Counted from the stretch's first letter, positions 4,459-29,267 are shown. The stretch is 64,000 nt of DNA from an uncultured Anaerolinea sp. (GCA_964531975.1 CAZHFU010000012.1:12705-76704), one strand, 5' to 3'. Numbers and translations are program-made. The notes: generated by a model not told the origin, from the sequence alone.

Positions 4459-5769
4459 ATGATTAAAATCGTTCTTGAAATAATATTCCTCATCCTGCTC
4501 ATTTTAGCCAATGGAGTCTTTTCTATGTCGGAAATGGCAGTGATTACTGCACGGCGCAATCGCTTACAGCAGCGCGCCGAAGCCGGCAGCGCCGGAGCCA
4601 GGAAGGCGCTGGCGCTGAGCAGCTCCCCCACGCGCTTCTTATCGACTGTGCAGATCGGCATCACGTTGATTGGCATTCTAAGCGGCGCGCTGGGCGGCGC
4701 AACCCTGGCAAAAGAATTCGGCATGCTCATTGGACGGGTGAGCTGGCTGGCCGCCTACAGCGAGGCGATTGGCGTGGGTGTAGTGGTCTTGTTGATTACC
4801 TACTTCTCGCTGGTGCTGGGCGAACTCGTCCCCAAGCGCCTGGCCCAAAACAACGCCGAACGCCTGGCGATTTTGCTGGCCGGCCCCATGAACCGCCTGG
4901 CTCATGTCACCGGCCCAGTGGTGAGCCTGCTTTCATGGTCTACCGAAGCCGTGCTGCGTTTCCTGCGTGTGCGCCCCTCCGATGAACCGGCGGTGACGGA
5001 AGAGGATGTGCGCATGCTGATCTCACAAGGGGCGCGCACGGGGGTCTTCGAAGCCTCCGAGCAAGAGATTCTGCGCCGCGTGTTTCGCTTAGGCGACCGC
5101 CGCGTCAGCGCCCTGATGACCTACCGCACGGAAGTGGTGTGGTTAGATGTGGAAGACGAGCTGGAACAAAACTTATTCAAGGCCATAGAAGCCGGTTATT
5201 CCATCTACCCTTTATGCCGTCAAACCATCGACGATGTGCTGGGCGTGGTGCGCGTAAAGGACCTGTTGGCTTGCCGCCAACGCCAGGAGACTCCCTCCCT
5301 GGTCGAAATCGCCCACCCGCCGGTGTTCGTGCCCGAATCGACCACCGCCCTCAACCTGTTAGATAAAATGCGCCGCCACAAAGTTGAAATGGCGCTGATC
5401 ATTGATGAGTTTGGCGGCTTGTTGGGCCTGGTGACGCTTAAGAATATACTTGACGCCTTAGTAGGCGAGCTGCCCAGCCCCGAAGATCACGATGACCCCG
5501 ACGTGGTGCAGCGCCAAGACGGCTCGCTGCTAATTGACGGTTCGTTGCAAGTGGATGAATTGAAAGACCTGTTGGCGGTTTCCGCCCTCCCCGGCGAAGA
5601 GGCCTACGGCTATGAAACGCTGGGGGGTATGCTGATGGCTCAGTTTGGCCGTATTCCCCACAGCGGCGATGTGCTAAATTGGGGCGGCATGAGCTTTGAA
5701 GTGGTGGACATGGACGGACGCCGCGTGGATAAGGTGCTGGTGAGGCGCACACCATCCGCCGCAGAATAA
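4459..5769 (+). CDS. Hemolysin/CNNM family protein (DUF21-CBS-CorC_HlyC)
   Basis: FSMSEMAV, LSTVQIGIT, GELVPKRLA, paired CBS domains, DEFGGLLGLVTL, YETLGG. Confidence 0.93.
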   Translation: MIKIVLEIIFLILLILANGVFSMSEMAVITARRNRLQQRAEAGSAGARKALALSSSPTRFLSTVQIGITLIGILSGALGGATLAKEFGMLIGRVSWLAAYSEAIGVGVVVLLITYFSLVLGELVPKRLAQNNAERLAILLAGPMNRLAHVTGPVVSLLSWSTEAVLRFLRVRPSDEPAVTEEDVRMLISQGARTGVFEASEQEILRRVFRLGDRRVSALMTYRTEVVWLDVEDELEQNLFKAIEAGYSIYPLCRQTIDDVLGVVRVKDLLACRQRQETPSLVEIAHPPVFVPESTTALNLLDKMRRHKVEMALIIDEFGGLLGLVTLKNILDALVGELPSPEDHDDPDVVQRQDGSLLIDGSLQVDELKDLLAVSALPGEEAYGYETLGGMLMAQFGRIPHSGDVLNWGGMSFEVVDMDGRRVDKVLVRRTPSAAE

Positions 5770-5802
5770 AACCGCCGGTCACGATGGATCAATGACCGGC
5801 GG
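5768..5802. terminator. Hairpin terminator between convergent genes
   Basis: CCGCCGGTCA (5772-5781) / TGACCGGCGG (5793-5802), A-run 5768-5771 gives U-tail on minus strand. Confidence 0.7.
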
Positions 5803-5825
5803 GGGGCGGCTGCTTAGCAGAAAGG

Positions 5826-7544
5826 TCAAGCCTGATCAAAAATCTTATCCATCTCCTCAGTCGGCACATCAAACACAGCGTTTGTGGGGTGCAGCGGTTC
5901 ACGCGTCATCCACTCCGGCAGGCGGTCTTGAGCGGAGGTGAACCCCGCCCGGCGGTTAAACTCGCGCTCCATAAGCACCGTTTCTTTGCCCAACACTTGC
6001 AAGTAGTTATCCGGCACGTCCCAACCATAGCGCGCCTTAATCAGCGCCGGGATCACCTGCGGCACAGAGCCGTAGCTAAACCCCGTGAAGATACACGCGC
6101 CGAGCGAGTCGTACCCGGCCATGTTAAACTGAGCAGTGCGCGACACTTCCACCTGGCCTTCGGGGCTGGTTTGATTGATCTTGGCGCGAATAGTTAGCCC
6201 GGAGGTGTGGTCGGCGCCCTGGGCGGAGGTGGCGTAGGTAACCCCTGTGCCCTTAATAGCCCGCGGATCGTAGGCGCTCATGGCCTGGTTCTTAACCGCC
6301 GGCACACGCTCCACCCCCAAAACTTGCCCGGTGATGGCCGCCCCGTTGCCAATGATGCGCCCCAGTGGGGTATTGGTGCGGATTTCTTGCAGCAGCCGCA
6401 TCGCCCCGTCATAATCGCCCCACGCAAACAGACCCGCTTCGGCTGCAACGCCCAACGCCGCCCCAATTTCAATCGAATCCAGGCCCATATCGTTCACTTC
6501 CCAGTTAAGGCGGGCGATGCAATCCAGGTCGCTAATACTCAGGTTCGACCCCATTAGCCCCAAAGTTTCGTATTCGATCGGCGAGACCACCGCCTTGCCG
6601 TTCACATCGCCGAAAATGTTCGACGAGCGAATGGCGCAGCCCACCATGCAGGCATGTGAAGTGTCACATTCGCCGCCGCGATCCAGCATGGCCTGGCGCA
6701 CCGCTTCACCGGAGATTTCCTCCGCCCGTTCAAATTGCCCATCCGAAAAGTTGCGCGTGGGCAAGCAGCCAAAGCTCTGGCACATCATCACAATAGCCGC
6801 AGTACCAAAATCGCGATAAGTGGCCGTTTGCGGATGAGCTGCCAGGGCAAGGCTAAATTCTTTGCGAGCGGCCTTAAAAGCGGCCTCATCCAAAATAGGC
6901 GGCTTGGATCCGCCGGATCCGTCAATCACCACTGCCTTGACATGCTTAGACCCCATCACCGCGCCAATGCCGCCGCGGGCGGCAATGCGGGTAGGTTGGC
7001 GATCCTTGTCCAGGTTTTGGATGCCGGCGCCGCGCAGCTGTTGTTCGCCGCCGGGGCCGATGAGCGCAATGGCGGGTTTCTCACCATAGCGTTCGATCAA
7101 GAGGGGCGCAGCGGTAAACACGCCGGTGTTCAATAAGTCGTCGGCCGCGTCGAAGCGCACTCCGCTGCTGCTCACGTGCAGCGTCCACCACCCCTGATCG
7201 GGTCGCTCTTCAATGATGAGCGCCTTAATCCCCAGCATCGCCAACTGCAAGCCGGTGCGCCCGCCGGCGTTGGCCTCTTTAATGCCTCCGGTTAGCGGGC
7301 TTTTCGCGCCGATGGAGATGCGGTCGGTGCTGGAAATCATGTGCCCCACCAATAAACCTGGTGCGAAGACCAGCTTATTATTCGGGCCTAGCGGTTCACA
7401 AGTCGCCACGTCTTCATCTAGTAAAATTCTAGTCAATAAACCGCGCCCGCCCAACTTGCGCCAGGCTTCGGGCACGGGTTCACGAGCAAAGCTGCGAGTG
7501 CGCATGTTCACTCGCCAAATCGAGAAGAATTCGTTGTTTTCCAT
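5826..7544 (-). CDS. Aldehyde:ferredoxin oxidoreductase (W/Mo-pterin AOR family)
   Basis: KSPLTGGIKEANAGG, AARGGIGAVMGSKHVKAV, EYETLGLMGSNL, GLDSIEIG, YATSAQGADHT motifs. Confidence 0.92.
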   Translation of the reverse strand: MENNEFFSIWRVNMRTRSFAREPVPEAWRKLGGRGLLTRILLDEDVATCEPLGPNNKLVFAPGLLVGHMISSTDRISIGAKSPLTGGIKEANAGGRTGLQLAMLGIKALIIEERPDQGWWTLHVSSSGVRFDAADDLLNTGVFTAAPLLIERYGEKPAIALIGPGGEQQLRGAGIQNLDKDRQPTRIAARGGIGAVMGSKHVKAVVIDGSGGSKPPILDEAAFKAARKEFSLALAAHPQTATYRDFGTAAIVMMCQSFGCLPTRNFSDGQFERAEEISGEAVRQAMLDRGGECDTSHACMVGCAIRSSNIFGDVNGKAVVSPIEYETLGLMGSNLSISDLDCIARLNWEVNDMGLDSIEIGAALGVAAEAGLFAWGDYDGAMRLLQEIRTNTPLGRIIGNGAAITGQVLGVERVPAVKNQAMSAYDPRAIKGTGVTYATSAQGADHTSGLTIRAKINQTSPEGQVEVSRTAQFNMAGYDSLGACIFTGFSYGSVPQVIPALIKARYGWDVPDNYLQVLGKETVLMEREFNRRAGFTSAQDRLPEWMTREPLHPTNAVFDVPTEEMDKIFDQA

Positions 7545-10781: not shown

Positions 10782-11321
10782 ATGCAGTTGAGCAACCATT
10801 TCATTATTTCAGCTTCGCAGCGCGATGTGTGGGATTTTTTCATCGACATTCCACGTATGTCGGTGTGTCTCCCTGGCCTGCGTGAAACCGTACAGGTGGA
10901 TGCGCAAAGCTACACCATGGCGGTCGAAACCCACGTAGGGGCGGTGCAGTCCACCTTCCATGGCACAGTCACCAAAACCACCGAAGAGGCCCCCCATCAC
11001 CTGACCACCACCATCCATTTATGGGACGCTAAGACCGCCAGCATTATCACCGGCCAAATCGAAACGTGCTTTTCAATCGAAGCGCCGTCCAGCACACGGG
11101 TCGATTATGCCATTGACATGGTTTTACGTGGTCGCCTGACCCAGGTGGATGAGGGCCTGGTGGAGGGAGCGTTACTGCTGTTTCTAGAAACCTTCCTGCA
11201 GTGTGCGCGCATGCGCATCGAGCGCCCACCCGCCGCTGCCCCCGCGGCGGCGCGGTCGCGGTGGCAGCGATTGGTTCAGGTTGTTCAGAACCTGGTAGAG
11301 AAACTCAAACAAACCCGATGA
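10782..11321 (+). CDS. SRPBCC/CoxG-like protein
   Basis: VWDFFIDIPRMSVCLPG resembles CoxG N-terminus; ~180 aa. Confidence 0.7.
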   Translation: MQLSNHFIISASQRDVWDFFIDIPRMSVCLPGLRETVQVDAQSYTMAVETHVGAVQSTFHGTVTKTTEEAPHHLTTTIHLWDAKTASIITGQIETCFSIEAPSSTRVDYAIDMVLRGRLTQVDEGLVEGALLLFLETFLQCARMRIERPPAAAPAAARSRWQRLVQVVQNLVEKLKQTR

Positions 11322-12058
11322 GCAGCCCGTCGTTGTGGGTCATCCTGGCCTTTGGCGCAGCCTGCTTCATCACCGGCCTATCCAAGGGCGGCATGGGCGG
11401 CGCATTGGGGTTTATCATCACCCCCATGTTGGCGCTTGTGATGCCGCTCAATCGCGCCGTAGGCCTGATGCTGCCCATCCTCATCTTAGCCGACAGCTTC
11501 ACCATCGTGGCCTATTGGCGGCGCTGGGAGGCCGGGCGAATTCGTGTGCTGCTGGTGGGGGCGGTGGTGGGGGTGAGCCTCGCCACCCTGGTGTGGACGA
11601 GCTTTCCCCTGCCAATCCTAAAAAAGGGGCTGGGCGGGTTGGTGTTAATCTTCACCGCCTACAAACTGATCGAGAAGCGCCTGCTAACCAAGATGACCTA
11701 CCAGATGCGCCCCTGGCACGGCGTGCTGGCGGGCGGCGTTGCCGGTTTTACCAGCACCCTGGCCCACGCCGGCGGTCCGCCGATTACTATCTATTTGCTG
11801 CTGCAAAAGTTAGACCCTCTGGTGTACATTGCCACCAACGGCCTGTTTTTCTGCTTACTCAACTGGATCAAGGTTCCGTACTTCGCCGCCGCCGGCATGT
11901 TCGATTGGGAATGGCAGCTGCGTCTCGCTCCCCTGGCGCTGCTGACGCCCGCCGGGGTGTTTAGCGGAAAATGGATGGCAAAACGCATTAACCGCCGGCG
12001 CTTTGAACAGGTTGTGCTGGGCCTGTTGATGGGTTCGGGCATCCTATTGTTAAGATGA
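11318..12058 (+). CDS. TauE/SafE sulfite-exporter family membrane protein
   Basis: ATGA overlap with upstream stop at 11318; GLSKGGMGG, GVAGFTSTLAHAGGPP, LNWIKVPY. Confidence 0.88.
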   Translation: MSSPSLWVILAFGAACFITGLSKGGMGGALGFIITPMLALVMPLNRAVGLMLPILILADSFTIVAYWRRWEAGRIRVLLVGAVVGVSLATLVWTSFPLPILKKGLGGLVLIFTAYKLIEKRLLTKMTYQMRPWHGVLAGGVAGFTSTLAHAGGPPITIYLLLQKLDPLVYIATNGLFFCLLNWIKVPYFAAAGMFDWEWQLRLAPLALLTPAGVFSGKWMAKRINRRRFEQVVLGLLMGSGILLLR

Positions 12059-12120
12059 AAGTTACCTCCTAAAATGGCGTATAATCTAAGGGTGTTCGTT
12101 AAGCAATTGGGAGCCTGCCC

Positions 12121-12438
12121 ATGAATGATGAATCGTATGGCCTGATGTTTATCCTGCCTTCAGGAGAAAAACAGACATTCAACGCCCTGCCGGTAAGCAT
12201 CGGGCGCGCCGCCGAAAATGATATCGTGATTGATCACGAAGCCGTTTCGGCTATGCACGCCCAGGTATATTACGACGATCTCTTGGGCGATGTCTGTATC
12301 CAAGACCTCGATTCGCTCAACGGCGTTGCCATAAATGATTTGCCCACCCGCAAAAATGTGCTGCACGATGGCGTCAAAATATCATTAGGTGGAGTGCAGC
12401 TTACCTTTCGAGACACCGGCTATATCCATGCCGGATAA
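12121..12438 (+). CDS. Stand-alone FHA domain protein
   Basis: SIGR...VSAMHAQV...DLDSLNGVAIN FHA motifs; GGGAG SD and TATAAT (~12080) upstream. Confidence 0.88.
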   Translation: MNDESYGLMFILPSGEKQTFNALPVSIGRAAENDIVIDHEAVSAMHAQVYYDDLLGDVCIQDLDSLNGVAINDLPTRKNVLHDGVKISLGGVQLTFRDTGYIHAG

Positions 12439-12440
12439 CC

Positions 12441-14258
12441 ATGATTACATGCCCGAACTGCCATGCTGAAAACCGTTCTGGGGCCAAGTTTTGTAAAAGC
12501 TGCGCCACGCGCCTGCCCGAATCGTCTGCGGAAACCTATCGCCTGCCCGACGCCGACCGCCAACCGGCCGCCAACAGCCTGCACCCTGTCAGCCGCCAGC
12601 CCGCCCCACCGTCTATACCTGTGAAACCAGCCAAACGCCCTATGACTAAATCTTCCCGTTCCGGAACTCGCCCTATCTCTGCTCCCAAGGCTTTCCTACG
12701 CCGCCCACCGGGAGCCATCTTCGGCGACATTTTCTTATACGAAAATGTCTTGTTTAGCGATGCCCAGCAGCATCGTTACAGCGTACGCCAGTTAGATGTC
12801 TCCGAAGATTTGCAAATTCGGGCCTGCCCCAACCCAGAATGCGGGGCGCTCTTTCCACCGCGCAGCGTGGCCCCTGAAAAGTACTGCACCGACTGCGGTA
12901 CTGTCTTAGAAAAAGGGGGGAAAGACCTGGTTTTGATCGAAGCCCACGCCCCCATTCCCGATACCCTGGCGCGCACCGCTGGAAAGGGTCTTTCACATGG
13001 CAGCGTACGCGCCCCGCTCTCTGCTTTTGTGGAACGCCTGGCCGACCAACCCCGTCACTGTGTGGTGGTTTCCCGCGTCATGGCCCTGGAGACCACCCCC
13101 GAACCATTAACCGCCGTGCGCTGGGGGATTCTGCTAGGGCGCGGGCTTGATTATTTACACGATAACGGGGTGTCCTTTGGCGGCAAAGTGGACGCCTCGT
13201 GCGTGGGCCTGGTGAACGGCAAAACAGTGTGGGCAAACTTCACCACCTGTAAACACCTGCCCGAAGGCTATGTGACCGACCGTTCCGCCGATACCCACAG
13301 CCTGGCGCAGATGATCTTCACCTGGCTTACGGGCAAGCCTAAAATCGCCCCAGACCCCAGCCTGACCCCCGCCTTGCAGCAGGTGTTTCTTGACCAGGCC
13401 GCCGACGGTCAGCTCAGTAACGGCTTGAAGTTAGCCGAGGCCCTGGAAAAAGCCGTCAGCGAAATGGCTGCTCCCACTGCCATTGATTTTCAGGTTGGAC
13501 GGTGCAGTAACGTGGGCAAAGTGCGCAGCCTGAATGAAGATAGCATTTTGGTGCTGGAAGTTAACCGCGTGGTCAAATCGGTCAGCCGCCCGCTGGGCGT
13601 CTTCGTTGTGGCCGATGGCATGGGCGGGCACACCGCCGGCGAGATCGCCAGCAGCGCCATCGTTTCCAGCATCGCTCAGAGTGCGCTCAAGGAATGGCTG
13701 CTGGAGGGCGTCACCCGCATCGCGCCGCTCAACGGACAGACCTGGCTAACCCACGCCGTACAGGCGGCAAACGCCGAAGTCTACAACCTGCGCAAGACCT
13801 CCGGCTCCGACATGGGTTCGACCCTGGTGGCAGCGGTGATGGACGCCGGCAAGTTGACCGTCTCACACATTGGCGACAGCCGCGCCTACCGCATCAACGC
13901 CGAGTCCATCACCCGTTTAACCATCGACCACTCGCTGGTGGAACGACTGGTTAGCACCGGCCAGATCACCCGTCAGGAAGCGCGTTACCACCCCCAGCGC
14001 AATGTCATCTACCGCACCGTGGGCGATAAGCAGCAGGTGGAGATCGAAACCACCACCCACACCTTCCTCCCTGGCGACAGCCTGCTGCTGTGTTCGGACG
14101 GCCTGACTGGGCCGTTAGACGACGACACCATCGCCCGCCTGGTGCGCCAGGCCACATCGCCGCAAGATGCTTGCAATCACCTCATCGAGGCGGCCAATGC
14201 CGGCGGCGGAGAAGATAACATCTCCGTCATAATTGTTCAGCTTTTTGGGTCTTGCTAA
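12441..14258 (+). CDS. Zinc-ribbon + degenerate kinase-like domain + PP2C/Stp1 Ser/Thr phosphatase
   Basis: CPNC..FCKSC and CPNPEC..YCTDC ribbons; PP2C motifs RSLNED, VADGMGG, MGSTLV, HIGDSRAY, LCSDGL, GGEDNISV. Confidence 0.9.
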   Translation: MITCPNCHAENRSGAKFCKSCATRLPESSAETYRLPDADRQPAANSLHPVSRQPAPPSIPVKPAKRPMTKSSRSGTRPISAPKAFLRRPPGAIFGDIFLYENVLFSDAQQHRYSVRQLDVSEDLQIRACPNPECGALFPPRSVAPEKYCTDCGTVLEKGGKDLVLIEAHAPIPDTLARTAGKGLSHGSVRAPLSAFVERLADQPRHCVVVSRVMALETTPEPLTAVRWGILLGRGLDYLHDNGVSFGGKVDASCVGLVNGKTVWANFTTCKHLPEGYVTDRSADTHSLAQMIFTWLTGKPKIAPDPSLTPALQQVFLDQAADGQLSNGLKLAEALEKAVSEMAAPTAIDFQVGRCSNVGKVRSLNEDSILVLEVNRVVKSVSRPLGVFVVADGMGGHTAGEIASSAIVSSIAQSALKEWLLEGVTRIAPLNGQTWLTHAVQAANAEVYNLRKTSGSDMGSTLVAAVMDAGKLTVSHIGDSRAYRINAESITRLTIDHSLVERLVSTGQITRQEARYHPQRNVIYRTVGDKQQVEIETTTHTFLPGDSLLLCSDGLTGPLDDDTIARLVRQATSPQDACNHLIEAANAGGGEDNISVIIVQLFGSC

Positions 14259-14276
14259 GGCCAGGTGGGCTTATTT

Positions 14277-15536
14277 ATGTTATCCCTGGTCATCACCCCC
14301 CACCGCCCCGTCTCCCCGGCGCTGCCAACCGAGCAGCAGGCGTATTTACTGATCGAAGCGCTGCCCCTTGAGAACGACTTGCCAACCGTGCGCCAACCGG
14401 TGAACCTGTGCCTGGCGCTGGATCGCAGCGGTTCGATGGACGGCGAGAAATTAGAGGCCGTGCGCCAGGCCGCCCTGCACATTGTGGAACGCCTCGGCCC
14501 GCAAGACAACCTGGCAGTGGTGGTTTTTGACGACGCCGAACCGGCGGAATGGGCGGTCGCGCCCACTGCGGTGATCGATAAAGAAGACCTGCGGCGGCGA
14601 ATTCGAGATATCCAGGCGCGCGGCGGAACACACATGTCCACCGGCATGCGCCTGGCATTGCAGGCGCTGCAGCAAAGCGGCGCACCCAACCAGGTAAAAC
14701 AGTTATTCCTGCTCACCGATGGTCAAACCTGGGAAGACAGCGAAGACTGCCTGGCCCTGGCCTCGATCTGCCAGCAGGCGGGCATTTCATTGCAGGTATT
14801 TGGCCTGGGCTTGGGCAGCGAAAATAATTGGGATCCCCAATTTCTGGAAGAACTGGCGCGGCGCTCGGGCGGGGAGTGGAACCTGATCGAAACCCCTGCA
14901 CAGCTGGATGAAATCTTCGGGCATGCTTTGAACACCCTACAAGAAACCGCCGCCGTGAACGCGCGCCTGGTGCTGCGTTTGGTAAACGGCGTTTCACCGC
15001 GCAACGTATGGCGCGTCACCCCGCTCATCAGTCGGCTGGATGCACAGGCGATTTCGCAGCACGACGTACAAATCTACCTGGGCGATATTCACTATGGCAA
15101 CGGCCAGGCCGTCTTGGCCGAGTTAATCTTACCGCCGCGCCCGGCCGGCAGCTACCGCCTGGCCCATGCCGAATTAATTTATGACAACCCTCAAAGCCAG
15201 CAGAGCGAGCTGCGCGCTGCCGCCGATTGTATCTTCCGGTTTTCAGATGCGCCCCACGAATCGGCGGTTCTGAATGAAGCCATGATGAACCTGATCGAAC
15301 GCGTGACCGCCCATCGACTGCAAACCCAGGCGCTAGACGCCGCCGCTGCCGGCGATATGGCCCACGCCACGCGCAAGCTGCGCGCTGCCGCCACGCGTCT
15401 GTTAGAATTAGGGCAGACCGAAATGGCCCAGGAAGCAGAATGGCAAGCGCAGCGCCTGGAGCAAGACGGTCGCCTGGACCTGGCCGATGCTCAAAAAATG
15501 CGCTATGCCACCAAACGCCTGACTGAGTTGGATTAA
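14277..15536 (+). CDS. von Willebrand factor A domain protein
   Basis: MIDAS DRSGSM, GGT, LLTDG; helical C-terminus; start ATG 14277 (GTG 14265 alternative). Confidence 0.9.
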   Translation: MLSLVITPHRPVSPALPTEQQAYLLIEALPLENDLPTVRQPVNLCLALDRSGSMDGEKLEAVRQAALHIVERLGPQDNLAVVVFDDAEPAEWAVAPTAVIDKEDLRRRIRDIQARGGTHMSTGMRLALQALQQSGAPNQVKQLFLLTDGQTWEDSEDCLALASICQQAGISLQVFGLGLGSENNWDPQFLEELARRSGGEWNLIETPAQLDEIFGHALNTLQETAAVNARLVLRLVNGVSPRNVWRVTPLISRLDAQAISQHDVQIYLGDIHYGNGQAVLAELILPPRPAGSYRLAHAELIYDNPQSQQSELRAAADCIFRFSDAPHESAVLNEAMMNLIERVTAHRLQTQALDAAAAGDMAHATRKLRAAATRLLELGQTEMAQEAEWQAQRLEQDGRLDLADAQKMRYATKRLTELD

Positions 15537-15590
15537 AATATTGGTAGAGAATGGCGGCTGCTAAACATCGCCGCCGTCAGGAGGAGAGCA

Positions 15591-16235
15591 ATGCCCGGAA
15601 TGTTATGCCCAAGTTGCAACACCCCCGCCCCGGCTGGGGCGATCTTCTGCGATTTCTGCGGGTTCGACCTGCGCACCGTCAACAGCGAGGCGCTCGCCAC
15701 TCAGCTTGCCTACATGCCCGCGTCCGCCTCTAATAGCCCGGTTTGCCCCATGTGTGGGCATCCGAACGTGCCAGGGGCGGCGTTTTGTGAGAATTGCGGC
15801 GCGCAGTTGTCGTCATCCGTGATTACACCGGGGGGCGAGTCGCCATCAGCCGCGCCTTCGCTGCCTGCTGCGCCATCGCTTGCGGCTGCGCCTACCCCGG
15901 CCGGTGGTTTCGTCACCGGTCGCCTGGTGGTCAACGCCGGCCAGGCGGCATTAGAAATTCCCCCCGGAAAGACTACCGTGGTATTGGGGCGTGAAGACCC
16001 GGTGAGCGGCGTATTTCCAGATATTGATTTAGACCCCCATGGTGGGCACGAGAACGGCGTGGGCCGCCGTCACGCCCAATTGGTATGGGTGAATGGACAG
16101 GTGTGCTTGGAAGACCTGGACAGTGTGAATGGCACTACGCTCAACCACATCCGTTTAGCGCCTCATCAGCCGCAGCCGCTCAGCCCAGGGGATGAGATCT
16201 TGCTGGGTAAGCTAGCCTTAACCTACCAGGCCTGA
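15591..16235 (+). CDS. Double zinc-ribbon + FHA domain protein
   Basis: CPSC..FCDFC and CPMC..FCENC; VLGR...VGRRHAQL...DLDSVNGT; AGGAGG SD. Confidence 0.9.
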   Translation: MPGMLCPSCNTPAPAGAIFCDFCGFDLRTVNSEALATQLAYMPASASNSPVCPMCGHPNVPGAAFCENCGAQLSSSVITPGGESPSAAPSLPAAPSLAAAPTPAGGFVTGRLVVNAGQAALEIPPGKTTVVLGREDPVSGVFPDIDLDPHGGHENGVGRRHAQLVWVNGQVCLEDLDSVNGTTLNHIRLAPHQPQPLSPGDEILLGKLALTYQA

Positions 16236-16245
16236 GACTGTCGCA

Positions 16246-17520
16246 ATGCCTTTCTGCCCTGATTGCCACGCCGAGGTCACCGATACGGCCCGCTTTTGCG
16301 ATAACTGTGGCTACCCGTTAAGCGCGCCGCCGTCTCGCGTCCCTGCGCCAGTGCAAACACCCGCCGCGGCGGCGCGCCCGAGCTTGCCGGCGGCAGCCCC
16401 GCCGGCGGCCGCTCATCCGCCGAGCGCATTTGCCTGCCCCGCCTGCGGAATAGAAAATGTGGCCGGGGAAATATTCTGCCAAAATTGCGGCGAAACCCTG
16501 CCGCCGCTGAGCAGCCGCCTGCCGTCTGCTGCGCCGCTCAACCCGCCGCCGGCCCACAGCACTGCCGCGCCGGCAACGCTGCCCTGGCCGTCTGCACCCG
16601 AGGCGACCATCTCAACGCCACCCGCCGCCCCGCTCGGCCCCACGCCAACGCCGCCTGCGCCGCCCATCCCGCCTGCTTCAGTCCCGCCCAGCCCCCGCAA
16701 CCTCCCGGCGGCCAACCTGGCCTCCGCGCCACCTGCCGCCCCGCTCGACCCCACGCCAACGCCGCCTGCGCCGCCCATGCCGCCTGCTTCAGTCCCGCCC
16801 AGCCCCTCCAACCTCCCGGCGGCCAACCTGGCCCCCGCGCCTCCCGGCGCTCCGCTCGGCCCCACGCCAACGCCGCCTGCGCCGCCCATCCCGCCTGCTT
16901 CAGTCCCGCCCAGCCCCCGCAACCTCCCGGCGGCCAACCTGGCCTCCGCGCCACCTGCCGCCCCGCTCGACCCCACGCCAACGCCGCCTGCGCCGCCCAT
17001 GCCGCCTGCTTCAGTCCCGCCCAGCCCCTCCAACCTCCCGGCGGCCGACCTGGCCTCCGCGCCTCCCGGCGCTCCGCTCGGCCCCACGCCAACGCCGCCC
17101 AACGACGCCCCGCCCTACCAAACGGCCGCCTTAAACCCACTGCCGCCAGACGAAGCGGATATTCGCCCTGCGCTTATCGCGCCGCCGCCTTCTCCCGGAC
17201 GCCTGGTGCTGCGCGCCACCGGGCAAGCCATTCCCCTACCGGCTGGTTCCAGCGAAGTGCTGATTGGCCGCTCCGACCCGATAAAGGGGGTCTATCCCCA
17301 CATTGATCTATCTCCCTTTGGCGGCGACAACAGCGGTGTATCGCGCCGGCATGCCCGCCTGCTCTTTGTGGCCGGCAGCGTCACCGTCGAAGATCTGCAC
17401 AGCACCAACTTCACCTTTATTAACCGCCAAAAATTGGAGCCTGGGCGACCATATCCCCTCCACCCTGGCGATGAACTACGCCTGGGCCTGATGGCGCTGA
17501 TTTACCAGGCCGGCGGTTGA
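16246..17520 (+). CDS. Double zinc-ribbon + Pro/Thr repeat linker + FHA domain protein
   Basis: CPDC..FCDNC, CPAC..FCQNC; IGRSD...VSRRHARL...DLHSTNFT. Confidence 0.9.
   Translation: MPFCPDCHAEVTDTARFCDNCGYPLSAPPSRVPAPVQTPAAAARPSLPAAAPPAAAHPPSAFACPACGIENVAGEIFCQNCGETLPPLSSRLPSAAPLNPPPAHSTAAPATLPWPSAPEATISTPPAAPLGPTPTPPAPPIPPASVPPSPRNLPAANLASAPPAAPLDPTPTPPAPPMPPASVPPSPSNLPAANLAPAPPGAPLGPTPTPPAPPIPPASVPPSPRNLPAANLASAPPAAPLDPTPTPPAPPMPPASVPPSPSNLPAADLASAPPGAPLGPTPTPPNDAPPYQTAALNPLPPDEADIRPALIAPPPSPGRLVLRATGQAIPLPAGSSEVLIGRSDPIKGVYPHIDLSPFGGDNSGVSRRHARLLFVAGSVTVEDLHSTNFTFINRQKLEPGRPYPLHPGDELRLGLMALIYQAGG
16614..17100 (+). repeat. In-frame 111-bp (37-aa) tandem repeat, about 4.3 copies, alternating A/B variants
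   Basis: CCGCTCG anchor recurs at 16630, 16741, 16852, 16963, 17074 (period 111). Confidence 0.95.
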
Positions 17521-17536
17521 AGGCGGGCAGCGCTTA

Positions 17537-19681
17537 GTGATCGGCCCCGGAGATATCCTCAATAACCGCTATCGGGTTGTTCGCACCTTTGGACAGGGTG
17601 GGTTCAGCACGGTATATCGCGCCTGGGATATGGTGCTGGGCTGTCCGTGCGCCCTCAAGGAAAATCCCGACGCCAACCCGCATGTGCAGCGTCAATTCCT
17701 GCGCGAAGCCAAGATATTAGCTAATTTACATCAGAATAACCTGCCGCGGGTGAGCGATTTTTTTATTGAGAACGGCCGCCAATACCTGGTGATGGAATTT
17801 GTGGAGGGGCAAGACTTGCAAGACATGCTGGAGGATCGCGGCGGGCCTCTTCCAGAAGACCAGGTTCTACCGTGGATATTGCAGGTGTGCGACGCCCTCA
17901 CCTATTTGCATACTCGCAAACCGCCGATTATCCATCGCGATGTCAAACCAGCTAATATCAAGATCACCCCCGACGGCATCGCGATGCTGGTCGATTTTGG
18001 CATCGCCAAACAAGAACCGGCCCACAAGAAGACCACCGTGGCAGCCCAGGCGGTGACGCCCGGCTTTTCTCCTCTGGAGCAGTACGGCAAGGGCAGCACC
18101 GACGCGCGCACCGATGTGTACGCCTTGGGAGCCACGTTGTACACTATGCTGACCGGCGTCGAACCGCCCGAAAGTGTGCAGCGCGTTGTCCACGATCCAC
18201 TCACCCCGGCGCGCACACACAACCCTGGCATCTCGCTGCGCAGCGCGGCGGCATTGAGCCGCGCCTTGCAGATGGATCCGCAGCAGCGTTTTCAAAGCGC
18301 CGCCGATTTCAAGGCCGCCCTGGCCCCCACAACCAGTATGCATCCCTCGGCGCAGCGGCTGCGCCCTCCCTCGGCGAGCGGCGTGGCCGGGGCGGCGGGC
18401 GGGGGTTCGCTGCCGGTCGGCGGTGCGCCGGCAGGCGGGTTTGCGGGAGGCCAATCTGCGGCTGCCCCAATTTGGGGTAAGCTGGCCGGGTTTGGGCTGG
18501 CGGCGCTGGTTTTATTACTGGTGGGGCTGCTGCTGCGCCCCACCGCCCGTCCTCCCCGCCCCTTTCCTGTCGAGCAAGCTGCCGCGCCATCAACCGCCGC
18601 GGCCAGCATGACCGCGCCGGGTGCGCCCACCTCGTTGGCCGCGAACGAGGCAGCGCCCTCCGCGGCGCTCGCCCAAACCATGGCATCGCCAGACCCGCAA
18701 ACCATCGCCGCCAACGCCACGCTTACCCCAGCCCCTTCCGCCGCTCCCTCCGCCACCCCCGCCCTCATGCGCTACACGGTGCAGGCGGGCGATACCTGTT
18801 CGGAGATCGCCGAACGCTTTGGGGTCAGCCTGCGCGAGCTGTCAAAACTAAACGATTTACCCGCCGACTGCGGCGTGATTTACCCCGGCCAGGCGCTGCT
18901 CGCCCCTATCCCAGATGTATACGCCATCGCCACGCTTACGCCTACCCCCAATCAAGCCATCGCCACGGCCATAGCCGCGGTGGACGGAGCGGCGCTGGTA
19001 TATGTGCCCTCCGGCCAGTTCTTGATGGGGTCGCTGGTGGATGATGTGCGCGGCGGCGATGAAGAGAAACCCCAACACAGCGTATACTTGAAAGCCTATT
19101 GGATCGACCGCACCGAGGTGACCAATGCCATGTACGCCCGCTGTGTGCAGGTGGGGAAATGCCGACCGCCGGCGCAAAGCAGCTCGCAAACCCGCCCCGC
19201 CTATTATGACGAGGCGGAGTTCGGCGCTTTTCCGGTGGTGTACGTGGCCTGGCAAGACGCGCAAGCCTACTGCGCTTGGGCCGGGCGGCGCTTGCCCAGC
19301 GAAGCCGAATGGGAGAAAGCCGCCCGTGGCCCCGACGGCGGGCTGTATCCCTGGGGCGACGCCTCCCCCACCCTCAAGTTGGCGAACTTTGGCGGATTGT
19401 TGGGCGACACCACCGCGGTGGGCAGCGCCCCCGCCGGGGCCGCCCCCTATGGCGCTTTGGACATGGCCGGCAACGTGGCCGAATGGACCGCCGATTGGTT
19501 CAACAAGGCCGCCTATACCCTGTCGGAATTCTCGAACCCCTCCGGCCCGGCCACGGGCGAATTCCGTGTGCTGCGGGGCGGTTCGTGGTTCAACCAGGCC
19601 AACACTCTGAGGGCGGCTTTCCGCTTGTGGAATTATCCCGATTTGCGCAGCAACACCATTGGATTTCGCTGTGCCAGGTAA
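17537..19681 (+). CDS. Hanks-type Ser/Thr kinase - TM - LysM - FGE-sulfatase (SUMF1-like) domain
   Basis: GQGGFS, ALKE, HRDVKPANI, DFG; TM WGKLAGFGLAALVLLLVGLLL; LysM YTVQAGDT..IAERFGVS; RLPSEAEWEKAARG, DMAGNVAEW, RGGSW, GFRC. Confidence 0.93.
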   Translation: MIGPGDILNNRYRVVRTFGQGGFSTVYRAWDMVLGCPCALKENPDANPHVQRQFLREAKILANLHQNNLPRVSDFFIENGRQYLVMEFVEGQDLQDMLEDRGGPLPEDQVLPWILQVCDALTYLHTRKPPIIHRDVKPANIKITPDGIAMLVDFGIAKQEPAHKKTTVAAQAVTPGFSPLEQYGKGSTDARTDVYALGATLYTMLTGVEPPESVQRVVHDPLTPARTHNPGISLRSAAALSRALQMDPQQRFQSAADFKAALAPTTSMHPSAQRLRPPSASGVAGAAGGGSLPVGGAPAGGFAGGQSAAAPIWGKLAGFGLAALVLLLVGLLLRPTARPPRPFPVEQAAAPSTAAASMTAPGAPTSLAANEAAPSAALAQTMASPDPQTIAANATLTPAPSAAPSATPALMRYTVQAGDTCSEIAERFGVSLRELSKLNDLPADCGVIYPGQALLAPIPDVYAIATLTPTPNQAIATAIAAVDGAALVYVPSGQFLMGSLVDDVRGGDEEKPQHSVYLKAYWIDRTEVTNAMYARCVQVGKCRPPAQSSSQTRPAYYDEAEFGAFPVVYVAWQDAQAYCAWAGRRLPSEAEWEKAARGPDGGLYPWGDASPTLKLANFGGLLGDTTAVGSAPAGAAPYGALDMAGNVAEWTADWFNKAAYTLSEFSNPSGPATGEFRVLRGGSWFNQANTLRAAFRLWNYPDLRSNTIGFRCAR

Positions 19682-21218
19682 TCCCGAACTGCTTTCATTA
19701 CCAGAGTCTACCGGCAAGTCGTCGATTAAGCAGCAAATTCGATCAGCATCCGTTTTAATCTTAGTCATCATCTTGACGGGCGTCCTGCTGCGTATCTATT
19801 TTTACCTGGTTAACCGCTCGTTGTGGCTAGATGAAGCTTTTTTAGCCGCCAGCCTGGTGAACCGCTCATTCGCCGGCTTGTTCCAACCGCTCGAATATGC
19901 CCAAGGCGCGCCGCCTGGTTTTTTGTTGGCGGCGAAAACCGCCGTGGTTTTGTTTGGCAAGACGGACTACAGCCTTAGACTCATTCCATTATTGGCCGGA
20001 GTGGCATCTGTGCCTTTGATGGCGGCGGTTGCACACCGCTACAGCGCCAGGCCGGCGGCGATGGTTGCCTCCGCTTTATTCGCCCTTTCTCCCCGCCTCA
20101 TTTATTATTCTTCTGAAGTGAAGCAGTATTCTACCGACGTATTTTTTGCACTGCTGTTATTATATACCGGCCTGGCTTGCCTGCAAAAAGATCACCAAAC
20201 GCGCTGCCTGGCGCTATTTGGGGCCGCCGGGATCATTGCCGTCTGGATGTCTCATCCGGCGCTGTTCGTTTGGGCGGCGGTTGCCCTGGCGCTGGGCTTA
20301 ACCTTTATCAAACAGAATGACACTCGCCGCCTGTTATGGCTGGCAGGCGCAGCGGCGGTGTGGACGGTTAACCTGGCCGCAATTTATTTCATCTCCCTGC
20401 AAGATCTGGCAGCCAACAAACTCATGCTAAATTACTGGCATGGCGCTTTTGCGCCCATGCCACCGTGGAGCGATATTAATTGGTATCAGATGACCTTCGC
20501 CAACTTTCTTATAGACCCCATCGGTCTACCCAACAACCTGGTAATCCGCGGGTTATTATTGATTGGCGCCGCCTCATTGGCCTACCGGATCAAGACGCAG
20601 ACCGCGGCCATCTTTGCCCCCTTTGTTCTGGCGTTAATCGCCTCCGCTTTAGACAAATATCCATTTAGTGGGCGCTTACTATTATTCACAGCGCCATTGA
20701 TATTTTTGATTGCCGGCGAGGGCATCAATCGTCTGCGCTTGCTTGGGATGAGAGCCAGCCGTCCCCTCGCGTATCTTACCTTTGCGGTTTGCAGCATCTA
20801 CTTACTCTATACACCCGCCCTGGAAACCTTTAACCGGCTACTTTCTCCACCGATGGGGGAACATATCAAACCGGTGATGGCCTATATCCAGAAAAACCGG
20901 CAGCCCAATGATCTGGTATATGTTTACTACAGCACCATCCCCGCCTTCAACTTTTATGCCGCTCAATATGGATTCGGCCCCCAAGATTATTACTTGGGGG
21001 TCTTCTCCAGAGATTATCCCAATAAATATATCCAAGAGTTATCCACCTTCAAAGGCCGTCCGCGGGCCTGGTTCGTCTTCTCTCACAACTGTATTCAGTG
21101 CCAGGTCAACGAGGAGGAGTTCATCTTAGCCTATCTCGATCAGATCGGGCGGAGAGAAGACGCCTTTCTTGGAACCGGCGCAACCGCCTATCTGTATGAT
21201 CTTAGTTCACCGCCCTAA
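19659..21218 (+). CDS. GT-C fold membrane glycosyltransferase (GT39/ArnT-like); start codon uncertain
   Basis: LRIYFYLVNRSLWLDE, PPGF, LRLIPLLAG, SSEVKQYS motifs; ~12 TM segments. Confidence 0.8.
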   Translation: MDFAVPGNPELLSLPESTGKSSIKQQIRSASVLILVIILTGVLLRIYFYLVNRSLWLDEAFLAASLVNRSFAGLFQPLEYAQGAPPGFLLAAKTAVVLFGKTDYSLRLIPLLAGVASVPLMAAVAHRYSARPAAMVASALFALSPRLIYYSSEVKQYSTDVFFALLLLYTGLACLQKDHQTRCLALFGAAGIIAVWMSHPALFVWAAVALALGLTFIKQNDTRRLLWLAGAAAVWTVNLAAIYFISLQDLAANKLMLNYWHGAFAPMPPWSDINWYQMTFANFLIDPIGLPNNLVIRGLLLIGAASLAYRIKTQTAAIFAPFVLALIASALDKYPFSGRLLLFTAPLIFLIAGEGINRLRLLGMRASRPLAYLTFAVCSIYLLYTPALETFNRLLSPPMGEHIKPVMAYIQKNRQPNDLVYVYYSTIPAFNFYAAQYGFGPQDYYLGVFSRDYPNKYIQELSTFKGRPRAWFVFSHNCIQCQVNEEEFILAYLDQIGRREDAFLGTGATAYLYDLSSPP

Positions 21219-26324: not shown

Positions 26325-27092
26325 ATGCTCCACCCGCTGCAACCCACGGAAAACGATCTGCTGCCCAAGAAATCGCTCAAAGACAGCGTATTCGACTATT
26401 TGCACACCCGCATCGTGGCCGGCAAGGCCGCCCCTGGCGAGTGGCTGCGCCAGGAAGACATCTCCACCCATTTGGGCGTGAGCCAAACGCCGGTGCGCGA
26501 AGCCCTCGACCTGCTGGTAGCCGTGGGCCTGGCTGAGCGTGTGCCCTACCGCGGCGTGCGTGTGCCGGAATTGGACGCCGCCGAAATCATCGACGCCTAT
26601 GTGCTGCGCCTGATCTTAGAAACCGCCGCCGCCCGCCTGGCCGCCCTAAACATCACCCCCGCCGAAGTGGAACATTTGCAAACGCTGCTGGATCGCACCC
26701 GCACCCTGGTCACGCTGGACGATATGCCCGCCTTGCAGCAGCTCAACCGCCGCTTCCATAACGACCTGGCCGCCGCCTCCCACAACCCCTTGCTCAGCAA
26801 ACATTATCAGAACGCCGCCAACAAATTTCCCGATTGGCGGCTGTACGAAAGCATGTTTCGCCACCCCGAAATGCTCAAAACCAGCCTGCCGCGCGAGCTG
26901 GGCGAACACCAGGCCATGCTCACCGCCCTGGCCGCTCACCAACCCGACCAGGCCGTGGCGGCTGCCACCATCCACATTCGCAACCTGGCCCACGAATTAG
27001 TAACCTTCCTCAACATTCCTTCCCATCTGCTGGCGGCCAAGGAGGCCCAGGTGGCGGTCTTGCTGCAAAGCAGCCCGCCGCCCACCGCCTAA
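26325..27092 (+). CDS. GntR family (FCD/FadR-type) transcriptional regulator
   Basis: LRQEDISTHLGVSQTPVREAL wHTH; NRRFH and EHQAML FCD motifs. Confidence 0.92.
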   Translation: MLHPLQPTENDLLPKKSLKDSVFDYLHTRIVAGKAAPGEWLRQEDISTHLGVSQTPVREALDLLVAVGLAERVPYRGVRVPELDAAEIIDAYVLRLILETAAARLAALNITPAEVEHLQTLLDRTRTLVTLDDMPALQQLNRRFHNDLAAASHNPLLSKHYQNAANKFPDWRLYESMFRHPEMLKTSLPRELGEHQAMLTALAAHQPDQAVAAATIHIRNLAHELVTFLNIPSHLLAAKEAQVAVLLQSSPPPTA

Positions 27093-27136
27093 GCCGTTAT
27101 TTCTACATTATCCAATCACTTGCAAGGAGGCAACCC

Positions 27137-27784
27137 ATGACGACTGAATTGTTCCAAGCGATGGCGCAAAGCATTATCGACGGCGACGCCGAAGCCGCGG
27201 AGGCGCTGGCCCGCCAGGCCATTGAAGCCGGTATCGACCCCCTGGAGGCGATCAACCAGGGCTTTGTAGTAGGCGTAAACCATGTGGGCAAAGAATTCGC
27301 CGCCGGCGAAGCCTTTTTGCCCGAACTCGTCATGGCCGGCGAAGCCATGAAAAGCGCCGTCGCCACCCTGGAGCCGGAAATGGCCCGCCGCGGAACCAGC
27401 CGCGAAATGCTGGGCAAGGTGGTGCTCGGAACCATTCAGGGCGATATTCACGAAATCGGCAAGACCCTGGTGGGAACCATGCTGACAGCCGCCGGGTTCC
27501 AGGTCTACGATTTAGGCGTGGATGTGCCGGTGGAAAAGCTGGTGGCGAAGGCCCGCGAAGTGGAGGCCGACATTATCGGCGTCAGCGCCCTGCTCACCAC
27601 CACCATGGTGCGCCAGCGCGATGTGGTGGAAGCCCTGGAAGATATGGGTATGCGCCCAAAGGTGAAAGTGATGGTGGGCGGCGCGCCGGTAACCCGTGAA
27701 TGGGTGGAAGAAATCGGCGCGGACGGCTATTCGGAAGACGCCATCGGCGCAGTAGACGTGGCCCGCCGCCTGGTAGGGAAATAG
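27137..27784 (+). CDS. Corrinoid (B12-binding) methyl-carrier protein, MtgC/MttC-like
   Basis: FLPELVMAGEAM cap, GTIQGDIHEIGK (DxHxxG), GVSALLTTTM, VMVGGAPV; AAGGAGG SD. Confidence 0.95.
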   Translation: MTTELFQAMAQSIIDGDAEAAEALARQAIEAGIDPLEAINQGFVVGVNHVGKEFAAGEAFLPELVMAGEAMKSAVATLEPEMARRGTSREMLGKVVLGTIQGDIHEIGKTLVGTMLTAAGFQVYDLGVDVPVEKLVAKAREVEADIIGVSALLTTTMVRQRDVVEALEDMGMRPKVKVMVGGAPVTREWVEEIGADGYSEDAIGAVDVARRLVGK

Positions 27785-27794
27785 GGAGCGCAGC

Positions 27795-29258: not shown

Positions 29259-29267
29259 GAGGACGCT

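Follow-up and report, generated by a model that had tools for sequence, protein, structure and literature searches.

In Sulfolobus acidocaldarius, the zinc-ribbon and FHA protein ArnA and the cytoplasmic vWA protein ArnB are encoded by adjacent genes and form a phosphorylation switch served by the kinases ArnC and ArnD and the phosphatase PP2A. That is, the ArnA zinc finger docks weakly on unphosphorylated ArnB at the junction between its sandwich and helices, ArnC phosphorylates threonine in the C-terminal bundle of ArnB, the FHA domain of ArnA then clamps the phosphorylated partner, and the phosphatase reverses the process (PMC12852372, PMC6509490). In bacteria, phosphorylation positively regulates an FHA-bearing ABC transporter in the PknF/Rv1747 operon (PMC3138270), a phosphorylated pseudokinase recruits an FHA protein in the MviN-FhaA pair (PMC12599244), and actinobacterial neighbourhoods combining a kinase, a PP2C phosphatase and a vWA protein are already known (PMC7159879). 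Here we describe an operon of six genes, g1 to g6, in a 64-kb stretch of DNA (64,000 nt; the whole stretch is called the window below) from an uncultured Anaerolinea sp. (GCA_964531975.1, CAZHFU010000012.1:12705-76704). With middling confidence, we read this locus as a receptor-kinase-driven phosphothreonine switch that has a bacterial equivalent of ArnA/ArnB from archaea at its core. All six open reading frames (ORFs) lie on the + strand between positions 12121 and 19681, with the following features:

12047-12114, + strand: promoter-like hexamers (TTGTTA and TAAAAT, 17 nt apart) and a GGGAG ribosome-binding site, from a consensus scan and direct reading
12121-12438, + strand: g1, FHA protein, 105 aa
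12441-14258, + strand: g2, zinc-ribbon/pseudokinase/PP2C fusion, 605 aa (zinc ribbon aa 4-21, disordered linker aa 27-87, pseudokinase aa ~88-345, PP2C aa 356-600)
12702-13475, + strand: g2 pseudokinase domain, from the AlphaFold2 (AF2) fold and the loss of catalytic motifs
12825-12896, + strand: second zinc ribbon of g2 (C129, C134, C149, C152), inserted in the N-lobe, from a 26-sequence comparison
13506-14240, + strand: g2 PP2C (PPM) domain, from NCBIfam and invariant aspartates
14265-15536, + strand: g3, vWA protein, 423 aa (419 aa from the ATG at 14277 chosen by gene callers)
14403-14873, + strand: g3 vWA domain
~14946-15245, + strand: g3 split beta-sandwich
~15276-15527, + strand: g3 C-terminal four-helix bundle
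15591-16235, + strand: g4, double-zinc-ribbon FHA protein, 214 aa
16246-17520, + strand: g5, double-zinc-ribbon FHA protein, 424 aa
17537-19681, + strand: g6, Hanks receptor kinase, 714 aa
17570-18295, + strand: g6 Hanks kinase domain (Pfam Pkinase, E 2e-39)
18461-18553, + strand: g6 transmembrane helix, aa 309-339, from hydropathy, following a Gly/Ala-rich juxtamembrane stretch
18773-18907, + strand: g6 extracellular LysM domain (Pfam, E 3e-11)
18992-19678, + strand: g6 FGE-sulfatase-like domain, aa 486-714 (229 aa; Pfam, E 1.5e-59)

From g1 to g6 the genes are separated by gaps of 2, 6 (18 with the later g3 start), 54, 10 and 16 nt, and a scan of these intergenic gaps revealed no convincing terminator. 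The promoter-like hexamers sit within the 62-nt gap that separates a TauE gene from g1, an extra TATAAT is found at 12081-12086 upstream of g1, and the ribosome-binding site lies 7 nt 5' of the g1 ATG. The region is likely to be the start of the operon, the consensus matches marking a putative promoter. By hydropathy, the products of g1 to g5 have no hydrophobic segments and are soluble, and g6 has a single transmembrane helix. Counting the CxxC...CxxC pattern by regular expression gave six zinc ribbons, a pair in every one of g2, g4 and g5. A sequence-only reading of this region had proposed six co-oriented genes with short gaps, supplying a writer, an eraser, three FHA readers, six zinc-ribbon modules and a vWA protein. 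The ORFs, the gap lengths and the ribbon count bear this out, and the domains of the writer (g6 kinase), the eraser (g2 PP2C), the FHA readers and the vWA protein were all recovered by Pfam and NCBIfam.

The link to the archaeal switch comes from g3 and its neighbour g4. The vWA domain of g3 (Pfam VWA, E 5e-19) carries the MIDAS (metal ion-dependent adhesion site) residues D-x-S-x-S, T and D, which are invariant in 26 homologues, so that the earlier description of the protein as MIDAS-intact stands. In the AF2 model of g3 (predicted local distance difference test, pLDDT, 87.4), N-terminal strands (aa 2-30) complete a beta-sandwich (aa 224-323) that follows the vWA domain (aa 42-222) and precedes four helices (aa 334-417). 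The best Foldseek match to this model was a Catenulispora vWA protein (4fx5, E 9e-30), and ArnB (8s05_A, E 1.3e-25, TM-scores 0.68/0.73), ArnE (5a8j, E 1.2e-20) and then Sec23/24 were also matched. As modelled, g3 is a cytoplasmic protein of the tripartite ArnB/ArnE/Sec23-24 fold. Furthermore, g3 matched the ArnB chain 8s05_A at the sequence level (E 2.6e-7), and g4 matched the ArnA chains 8s05_C (E 1.2e-5) and 5a8i (E 2.2e-5) over the zinc-finger region. That is, g3 and g4 match the two partners of a single co-crystal, the ArnA-ArnB complex 8s05. Three threonines of g3 (Thr369, Thr377 and Thr416) are invariant and each is followed by xxL, and the tail AQKMRY-x-T-K-R-L is invariant as well.

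The three candidate readers, g1, g4 and g5, all contain an FHA domain recognised by Pfam (E 1e-14 to 1e-15; 1.2e-15 for g1 and 4e-14 for g4), as had been claimed. The small cytoplasmic protein g1, which has no transmembrane segment, shows the canonical phosphothreonine-binding residues (IGR, VSxxHA and SLNG) and ends in a tail, F-R-D-T99-G-Y-I-H, that contains a TxxI motif; these motifs and the DTGYIH tail are kept in 17 of the 18 orthologues. In g4, a double zinc ribbon (Pfam DZR, E 1e-14) is joined to the FHA domain by a short Pro/Ala linker, and Gly takes the place of the Ser that contacts phosphate in the SxxH motif (GVGR[RK]HA; FHA motif at ~aa 165-172). The same substitution is present in all 16 orthologous sequences that span the motif, two of the 18 examined being truncated before it. 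The FHA domain of g5 is 52% identical to that of g4 and keeps the canonical Ser (GVSRRHA), but NG is exchanged for STN[F/Y]T. Two zinc ribbons and a long Pro-rich linker precede the domain, and the linker contains a 111-nt tandem repeat (4.4 copies, 16616-17099, 92% matches) with a higher-order unit of 222 nt (2.2 copies, 98%). The repeat codes for a Pro-rich 37-aa unit of this linker; the orthologues have much shorter linkers, the size of g5 ranging from 240 to 470 aa. Two short-read contigs (L001 and L002) end within g5, ~15-30 codons ahead of the tandem repeat. For all three proteins the best NCBIfam model was FhaB/FipA, at 35-39 bits and thus below the 125-bit cut-off. A double zinc ribbon, a Pro-rich region and an FHA domain are also combined in FraH of Anabaena, a filamentous bacterium, which is likened here to g4 and g5 by domain order; FraH is not known to be encoded together with an ArnB-like vWA protein, a kinase or a PP2C.

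The eraser, g2, is built in an unusual way. Its PP2C domain exceeds the cut-off of the NCBIfam Stp1/IreP model (242 bits against 230), and 26 homologues share D367, D392, G393, D553, D592 and N593 without exception, the set of metal-binding aspartates being complete, so that the phosphatase looks active from its residues. A Pfam search of the 270 residues that separate the N-terminal ribbon from the PP2C domain gave no Pkinase match, and the only matches were zinc-ribbon and IBR-like ones to the inserted ribbon. Structure prediction was therefore needed to recognise a kinase relationship. The AF2 model, based on 22 homologues, had a pLDDT of 90.7 and a predicted TM-score (pTM) of 0.88, and its top Foldseek match in the PDB was the kinase domain of Mycobacterium tuberculosis PknB (E 2.7e-10, probability 1.0, TM-score 0.61). 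Weak, colinear kinase matches were also obtained with a g2 profile against the PDB, hhalign paired g2 with the g6 kinase at 75% probability (with the catalytic loop within a gap), and P0278, a distant member of the family, still scores above threshold with Pfam Pkinase. Neither GxGxxG nor the beta3 Lys (strand ...LVLIE...) was found in any of the 26 g2-family sequences, in which HRD and a conserved DFG Asp are lacking too; g2 itself has YLHDNGVSFGG at the HRD loop and VWANF at DFG, a position that is variable in the family (N/Y/G/D/E). The modelled fold and the motif losses support the view that the middle domain is a catalytically dead kinase fold, that is, a pseudokinase, where the sequence-only reading could only guess at one. 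Within the linker at aa 27-87, T32, T76 and P78 are the sole nearly invariant residues, and both threonines lie in TxxL/I motifs.

The g2 family comprises more than 2000 homologues, which, where named, are annotated solely as Chloroflexota or Anaerolineales, and is small, forming 159 clusters at 50% identity among 1.84 billion representatives; almost all of the clusters share one architecture of 550-650 aa. Some relatives fuse a g1-like FHA domain to the pseudokinase-PP2C unit, and at a distant locus (L022:2698-4563) vWA, Big_7 and FHA domains occur in a single polypeptide. Fusions of this kind support a functional connection of g1 with g2, and of vWA with FHA proteins. Among P0284, P0311, P0278 and P0324, the fusion variants seen were FHA-pseudokinase-PP2C and a zinc ribbon with an active kinase and a second pseudokinase-like domain. 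P0278 joins a zinc ribbon, a domain scoring as kinase and a PP2C, and is possibly an intermediate between active kinase and pseudokinase.

The writer, g6, had been described as an intact Hanks kinase with a LysM ectodomain. Its translation does contain K41, H133-R134-D135, N140 and D153-F154-G155, so that all catalytic motifs are in place, and the description as a single-pass receptor kinase with LysM also holds. What had been overlooked is the FGE-sulfatase-like domain, which makes up most of the ectodomain. Compared with the Streptomyces coelicolor FGE (6muj/2q17), where LCHDSYCN is aligned to F---NQAN, both catalytic cysteines (CxxxxC) are lost. With a gap and NQA standing where the CxxxxC segment should be, the domain is non-catalytic, and its role would probably be to bind a ligand. 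Moreover, since the ectodomain consists of LysM plus this FGE-like domain, peptidoglycan would be only one candidate among its possible ligands. The g6 orthologues align end to end over their full length. The closest NCBIfam kinases are PknB/Stk1; the PknB_PASTA model scored 192 bits, over the kinase domain only, against a cut-off of 450.

The arrangement was then compared between loci by tblastn and ORF mapping. A genome scan with one narrow peptide pattern gave 19 loci, all from Chloroflexota except one weak match (L023), which was left out. The related loci comprise 18 from the genome scan (Anaerolineae/Chloroflexota metagenome-assembled genomes), one found by contig look-up and six from metagenomes, and the taxonomic range may be underestimated with a single pattern. 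The gene order recurs in about 24 of these Anaerolineae/Chloroflexota loci (18 from genomes and 6 from metagenomes) at 45-60% protein identity, and the g1-g6 arrangement is far beyond chance; the proposal of a Ser/Thr phospho-signalling operon holds, and the operon is conserved. The canonical order is an FHA protein, the zinc-ribbon/pseudokinase/PP2C fusion, the vWA protein, two zinc-ribbon FHA proteins, a stand-alone PP2C (~280 aa, 5' of the kinase gene), the LysM/FGE kinase and a protein of ~950 aa. According to Pfam, the latter consists of a double zinc ribbon, two FHA domains, ABC_tran and ABC2_membrane (for example L008:17704-20595, L021:8404-11199 and L018:15804-18632), and at 60-72% identity this exporter is the best-conserved member of the cluster among the relatives. 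Neither the stand-alone PP2C nor the exporter is missing from any related locus of sufficient extent, the exporter being found in L004, L006-L013, L015-L021 and L024-L029. It lies 3' of the kinase gene or, in L019 and L020, where the kinase gene is absent, 3' of the stand-alone PP2C. The cluster adjoins ROK or TauE genes in several lineages, a pattern suggestive of vertical inheritance and not of a mobile island.

Some relatives, among them lineages without an in-cluster vWA gene, carry one or two further ArnB-like vWA genes 3' of the exporter (L025:13573-15746, L028:13450-15644 and L018:18873-20162); these paralogues share 29-37% identity with g3. The L018 paralogue matches vWA-TerF-like at E 3.9e-5 and 24.4 bits, under the 29.4-bit cut-off. 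In L004 (ERZ25039503 contig_49997, 832 kb), the AFOR gene, the kinase/FGE gene and the FHA-ABC exporter gene are fragmented (4828-6551 and 15469-20394); assembly frameshift errors are a more likely cause than real pseudogenes.

The window differs from this canonical layout downstream of g6, where the following gene is found:

19671-21218 (GTG start) or from 19659 (TTG start), + strand: g7, polytopic GT-C glycosyltransferase (PMT_2/ArnT-like)

The start of g7 overlaps the g6 stop by 11 nt (GTG 19671) or 23 nt (TTG 19659), and its product matches Pfam PMT_2 (E 4e-6) and an NCBIfam Agl23-like model, with ~8 hydrophobic segments. The g5-g6-g7 order and junction are also present on an independently assembled contig, and g7 is probably co-transcribed with the operon in this lineage. 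As no homologue was found in any related locus, g7 was rejected as a conserved member of the cluster; it is found in this lineage only and fills the slot of the zinc-ribbon-FHA-ABC exporter of the relatives. A metagenome scan with g6, intended to show when the stand-alone PP2C and the exporter were lost, gave a best match of 56% identity. The operon had been called self-contained, which is doubtful because the window lacks the PP2C and the exporter that the relatives carry and has a GT-C gene instead.

Set against ArnA/ArnB, the locus shares adjacent genes for a cytoplasmic vWA protein and zinc-ribbon FHA partners (g4 and g5 both combine DZR and FHA, g4 beginning 54 nt past the g3 stop), a split beta-sandwich and a C-terminal four-helix bundle carrying threonines in the vWA protein, and the division of labour between a Hanks kinase that writes and a phosphatase that erases. 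It differs in being bacterial, in having two zinc-ribbon FHA paralogues with double ribbons and long Pro-rich linkers and an additional small FHA protein, in encoding kinase and phosphatase in the same operon, in using a PP2C-pseudokinase fusion rather than PP2A as eraser, in having a receptor kinase with a LysM/FGE-like ectodomain, and in leaving ArnB_C unmatched. The loci of the relatives resemble PknF-Rv1747 of M. tuberculosis, where a kinase gene is likewise followed by one for a protein with two FHA domains, ABC_tran and ABC2_membrane; unlike Rv1747, the Anaerolineae exporter has an N-terminal double zinc ribbon and belongs to a much larger cluster, and the window is without it. In Deinococcus radiodurans, DRA0331-DRA0334 (vWA, Ser/Thr protein kinase, FHA and KI-FHA-PP2C) similarly unite a vWA protein, a Hanks kinase, FHA and PP2C in one operon, the Deinococcus kinases being linked to the DNA-damage response (bioRxiv 10.64898/2026.01.23.701218). 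There, as in plant KAPP, the PP2C bears a kinase-directed docking module, and distant g2 relatives consist of FHA, pseudokinase and PP2C; unlike those systems, the module in g2 is a pseudokinase with an inserted zinc ribbon instead of KI-FHA, and gene order and copy numbers differ.

Starting from the observed domains, catalytic motifs, topology, folds and conserved gene order, we infer a switch that would operate as follows. With the LysM and the non-catalytic FGE-like domain of its ectodomain, the kinase g6 would sense a glycan of the envelope, autophosphorylate and become active, and would then phosphorylate conserved TxxL/I threonines of g3 (C-terminal bundle and tail), g2 (N-terminal linker) and g1 (C-terminal tail). 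These candidate sites lie in otherwise variable or terminal segments of the three proteins, and Leu or Ile at +3 from phosphothreonine is the classical FHA-binding preference. By analogy with ArnA on ArnB, g4 and g5 would be pre-docked on g3 through their zinc ribbons, and clamping of the phosphothreonines by their FHA domains would turn a loose complex into a tight, multivalent one, on which the FHA pair of the exporter would also assemble in the relatives. The PP2C of g2 would reset the switch, its dead kinase domain serving as a docking module for the kinase domain of g6; alternatively, the phosphorylated linker of g2 may bind an FHA protein and so bring the phosphatase to its substrates. 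The MviN-FhaA pair, in which the dead kinase domain is a phosphorylated FHA docking platform, provides a precedent for this pseudokinase and FHA logic, and a similar role may be proposed for g2. Since the cluster of the relatives ends in the Rv1747-type zinc-ribbon/2xFHA/ABC exporter, the ancestral output is most likely to have been the phosphorylation-gated export of an envelope component, for which PknF/Rv1747 is the precedent. In the present genome, with the exporter and second PP2C lost from the locus and a GT-C gene placed after the kinase gene, the output would still concern the envelope.

Several points weigh against such a switch. Its phosphorylation, FHA-binding and complex-formation steps are all drawn by analogy, and the FHA domain of g4 may be wholly unable to bind phosphothreonine, g4 then perhaps binding its partner without it, because the phosphate-contacting Ser is Gly in all orthologues. 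The Pfam model of the regulatory helical bundle, ArnB_C, gave no match in the 26 g3-family members at E up to 10, so that the ArnB link comes from the fold and from weak sequence matches to PDB chains, and the identity between g3 and ArnB is just 15-16%. Folds of the ArnB type are also found in YfbK and Sec23/24, which are not phospho-regulated (PMC12852372). Furthermore, the vWA gene is absent from its cluster position in four loci (L013, L014, L017 and L018), making this partner dispensable in cis, and tblastn found neither the FHA-ABC exporter gene nor a second PP2C or second kinase in the 64-kb window.

The alternative that fares best, though we consider it unlikely, is a controller of cell-wall growth and division of the actinobacterial type (FhaA/FhaB-PstP-PknA/PknB, MviN-FhaA), in which the LysM kinase would read peptidoglycan fragments and the phosphorylated g2 pseudokinase would recruit an FHA protein, thereby inhibiting or localising peptidoglycan synthesis in these filamentous organisms. 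The LysM domain of g6 would suit such a role, as would the GT-C envelope glycosyltransferase gene 3' of the kinase gene in the window and the nearest NCBIfam relatives, FhaB/FipA (sub-cut-off) for the FHA proteins and PknB/Stk1 for g6; the fhaA-fhaB-pstP-rodA-pbpA-pknA-pknB cluster likewise combines FHA proteins with a PP2C and with a receptor kinase of the PknB type, and MviN-FhaA is an exact precedent for a phosphorylated pseudokinase that recruits an FHA protein (PMC12599244). However, neither rodA, pbpA, ftsW, murJ nor any other peptidoglycan-synthesis gene was found in or near the cluster, in the window or in the related loci, and the conserved terminal gene of the relatives encodes an ABC-2 exporter and not a peptidoglycan enzyme. 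In addition, the sensor has LysM and FGE-like domains instead of PASTA domains, and the g2 pseudokinase is fused to PP2C and zinc ribbons rather than to a flippase.

We regard as rather improbable that the locus is an ArnAB-like regulator of gene expression, that is, that the phosphorylation state of the vWA and zinc-ribbon FHA proteins sets the abundance of surface-structure, motility or stress proteins, as in Sulfolobus and Saccharolobus, and not the activity of a transporter. This would be in keeping with the similarity in fold and gene pairing to ArnA/ArnB, with the repression of the archaellum by ArnAB and the action of ArnA as a global repressor of the DNA-damage response in S. islandicus (PMC6509490, PMC10470591), and with the absence of a cis-encoded exporter from the window version. 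Pfam and NCBIfam, though, detected no DNA-binding domain in the six proteins, no motility or pilus genes lie nearby, and the authors of the ArnAB work saw no direct DNA binding by ArnA or ArnB (PMC12852372).

A defence or conflict system of the TerY-P or vWA-ternary kind, with a kinase/phosphatase/vWA triad that sets the threshold of a phage or stress response, is very improbable: triads of this sort are known from such settings (PMC7159879; PMC11090510 mentions TerY-P) and the g6 kinase domain matches the generic PADLOC models PD-T4-6 and mad6, but PADLOC gave only generic PP2C/kinase models for g2 and g6 and nothing for g1, g3, g4, g5 and g7, there are no Ter, MoxR or effector genes or mobile elements nearby, and class-wide synteny with housekeeping neighbours at 45-60% identity indicates a vertically inherited core locus and not a defence island. 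The likeness to the TerY-P triad of Ter stress systems drawn in the sequence-only reading extends to the joint encoding of a vWA protein, a Ser/Thr kinase and a PP2C, and goes no further. Pfam vWA-TerF-like, searched at E up to 10, left a trace in 1 of the 26 g3-family members (E 0.32), the fold of g3 is of the ArnB/Sec23 type, the FHA and zinc-ribbon proteins are integral to the present locus, its kinase is a membrane receptor, and no ter genes (TerD/TerZ/TerC) occur among the neighbours within ~10 kb.

These neighbours comprise ROK, CoxG, TauE, GT-C, ASCH, F420 oxidoreductase, PNPOx, Ham1, MetRS, GntR, corrinoid protein and MttB genes. In the region 10782-12058 of the window, the longest ORF for TauE (GTG 11201) overlaps the CoxG ORF by 121 nt; with the start chosen by gene callers (~11318, 246 aa) the overlap is gone. 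At 26325-30725, the gene for a GntR/FCD regulator is in a row with those for a B12-binding corrinoid protein and for two methyltransferases of the MttB family, which looks like a methylamine or glycine-betaine-type methyltransferase cluster unconnected with the operon.

We found no paper describing the operon, in line with the earlier view that its function in this lineage is uncharacterised. Neither a bacterial operon in which zinc-ribbon FHA proteins accompany an ArnB-fold vWA protein nor the eight-gene Anaerolineae cluster as a whole was found in the literature, and the same applies to a PP2C-fused pseudokinase with a zinc-ribbon insert, which is not among the seven families treated in a 2025 review of bacterial pseudokinases (PMC12599244). 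The parts are thus familiar and their combination has not been described previously, no new biochemical principle being demonstrated; the value of the locus is that of a well-defined, testable system rather than of a surprise. Ser/Thr phospho-signalling in Chloroflexota is essentially unstudied, and the ArnA/ArnB switch has so far been treated as archaeal, bacteria being credited only with structural look-alikes. If the phosphothreonine switch that we favour is correct, the locus would be a complete, class-conserved bacterial version, a single operon supplying the scaffold and the readers as well as the writer and the eraser, to which the relatives add a plausible output in the form of the Rv1747-type exporter. 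The PP2C-fused pseudokinase family would also provide a clean test case for the targeting of a phosphatase by a dead kinase domain. A more far-reaching form of this reading can be put forward tentatively, doubtful though it may be as a whole: an ArnA/ArnB-type switch would be wired to a glycan-sensing kinase and reset by an unclassified PP2C-fused pseudokinase, and multivalent binding of phosphothreonines by FHA domains, together with the Pro-rich linkers, would build a membrane-proximal cluster that gates an FHA-ABC exporter (here the GT-C protein) and thereby controls envelope or sheath construction in filamentous bacteria. If true, ArnAB would be an ancient module common to domains of life and not a crenarchaeal speciality.

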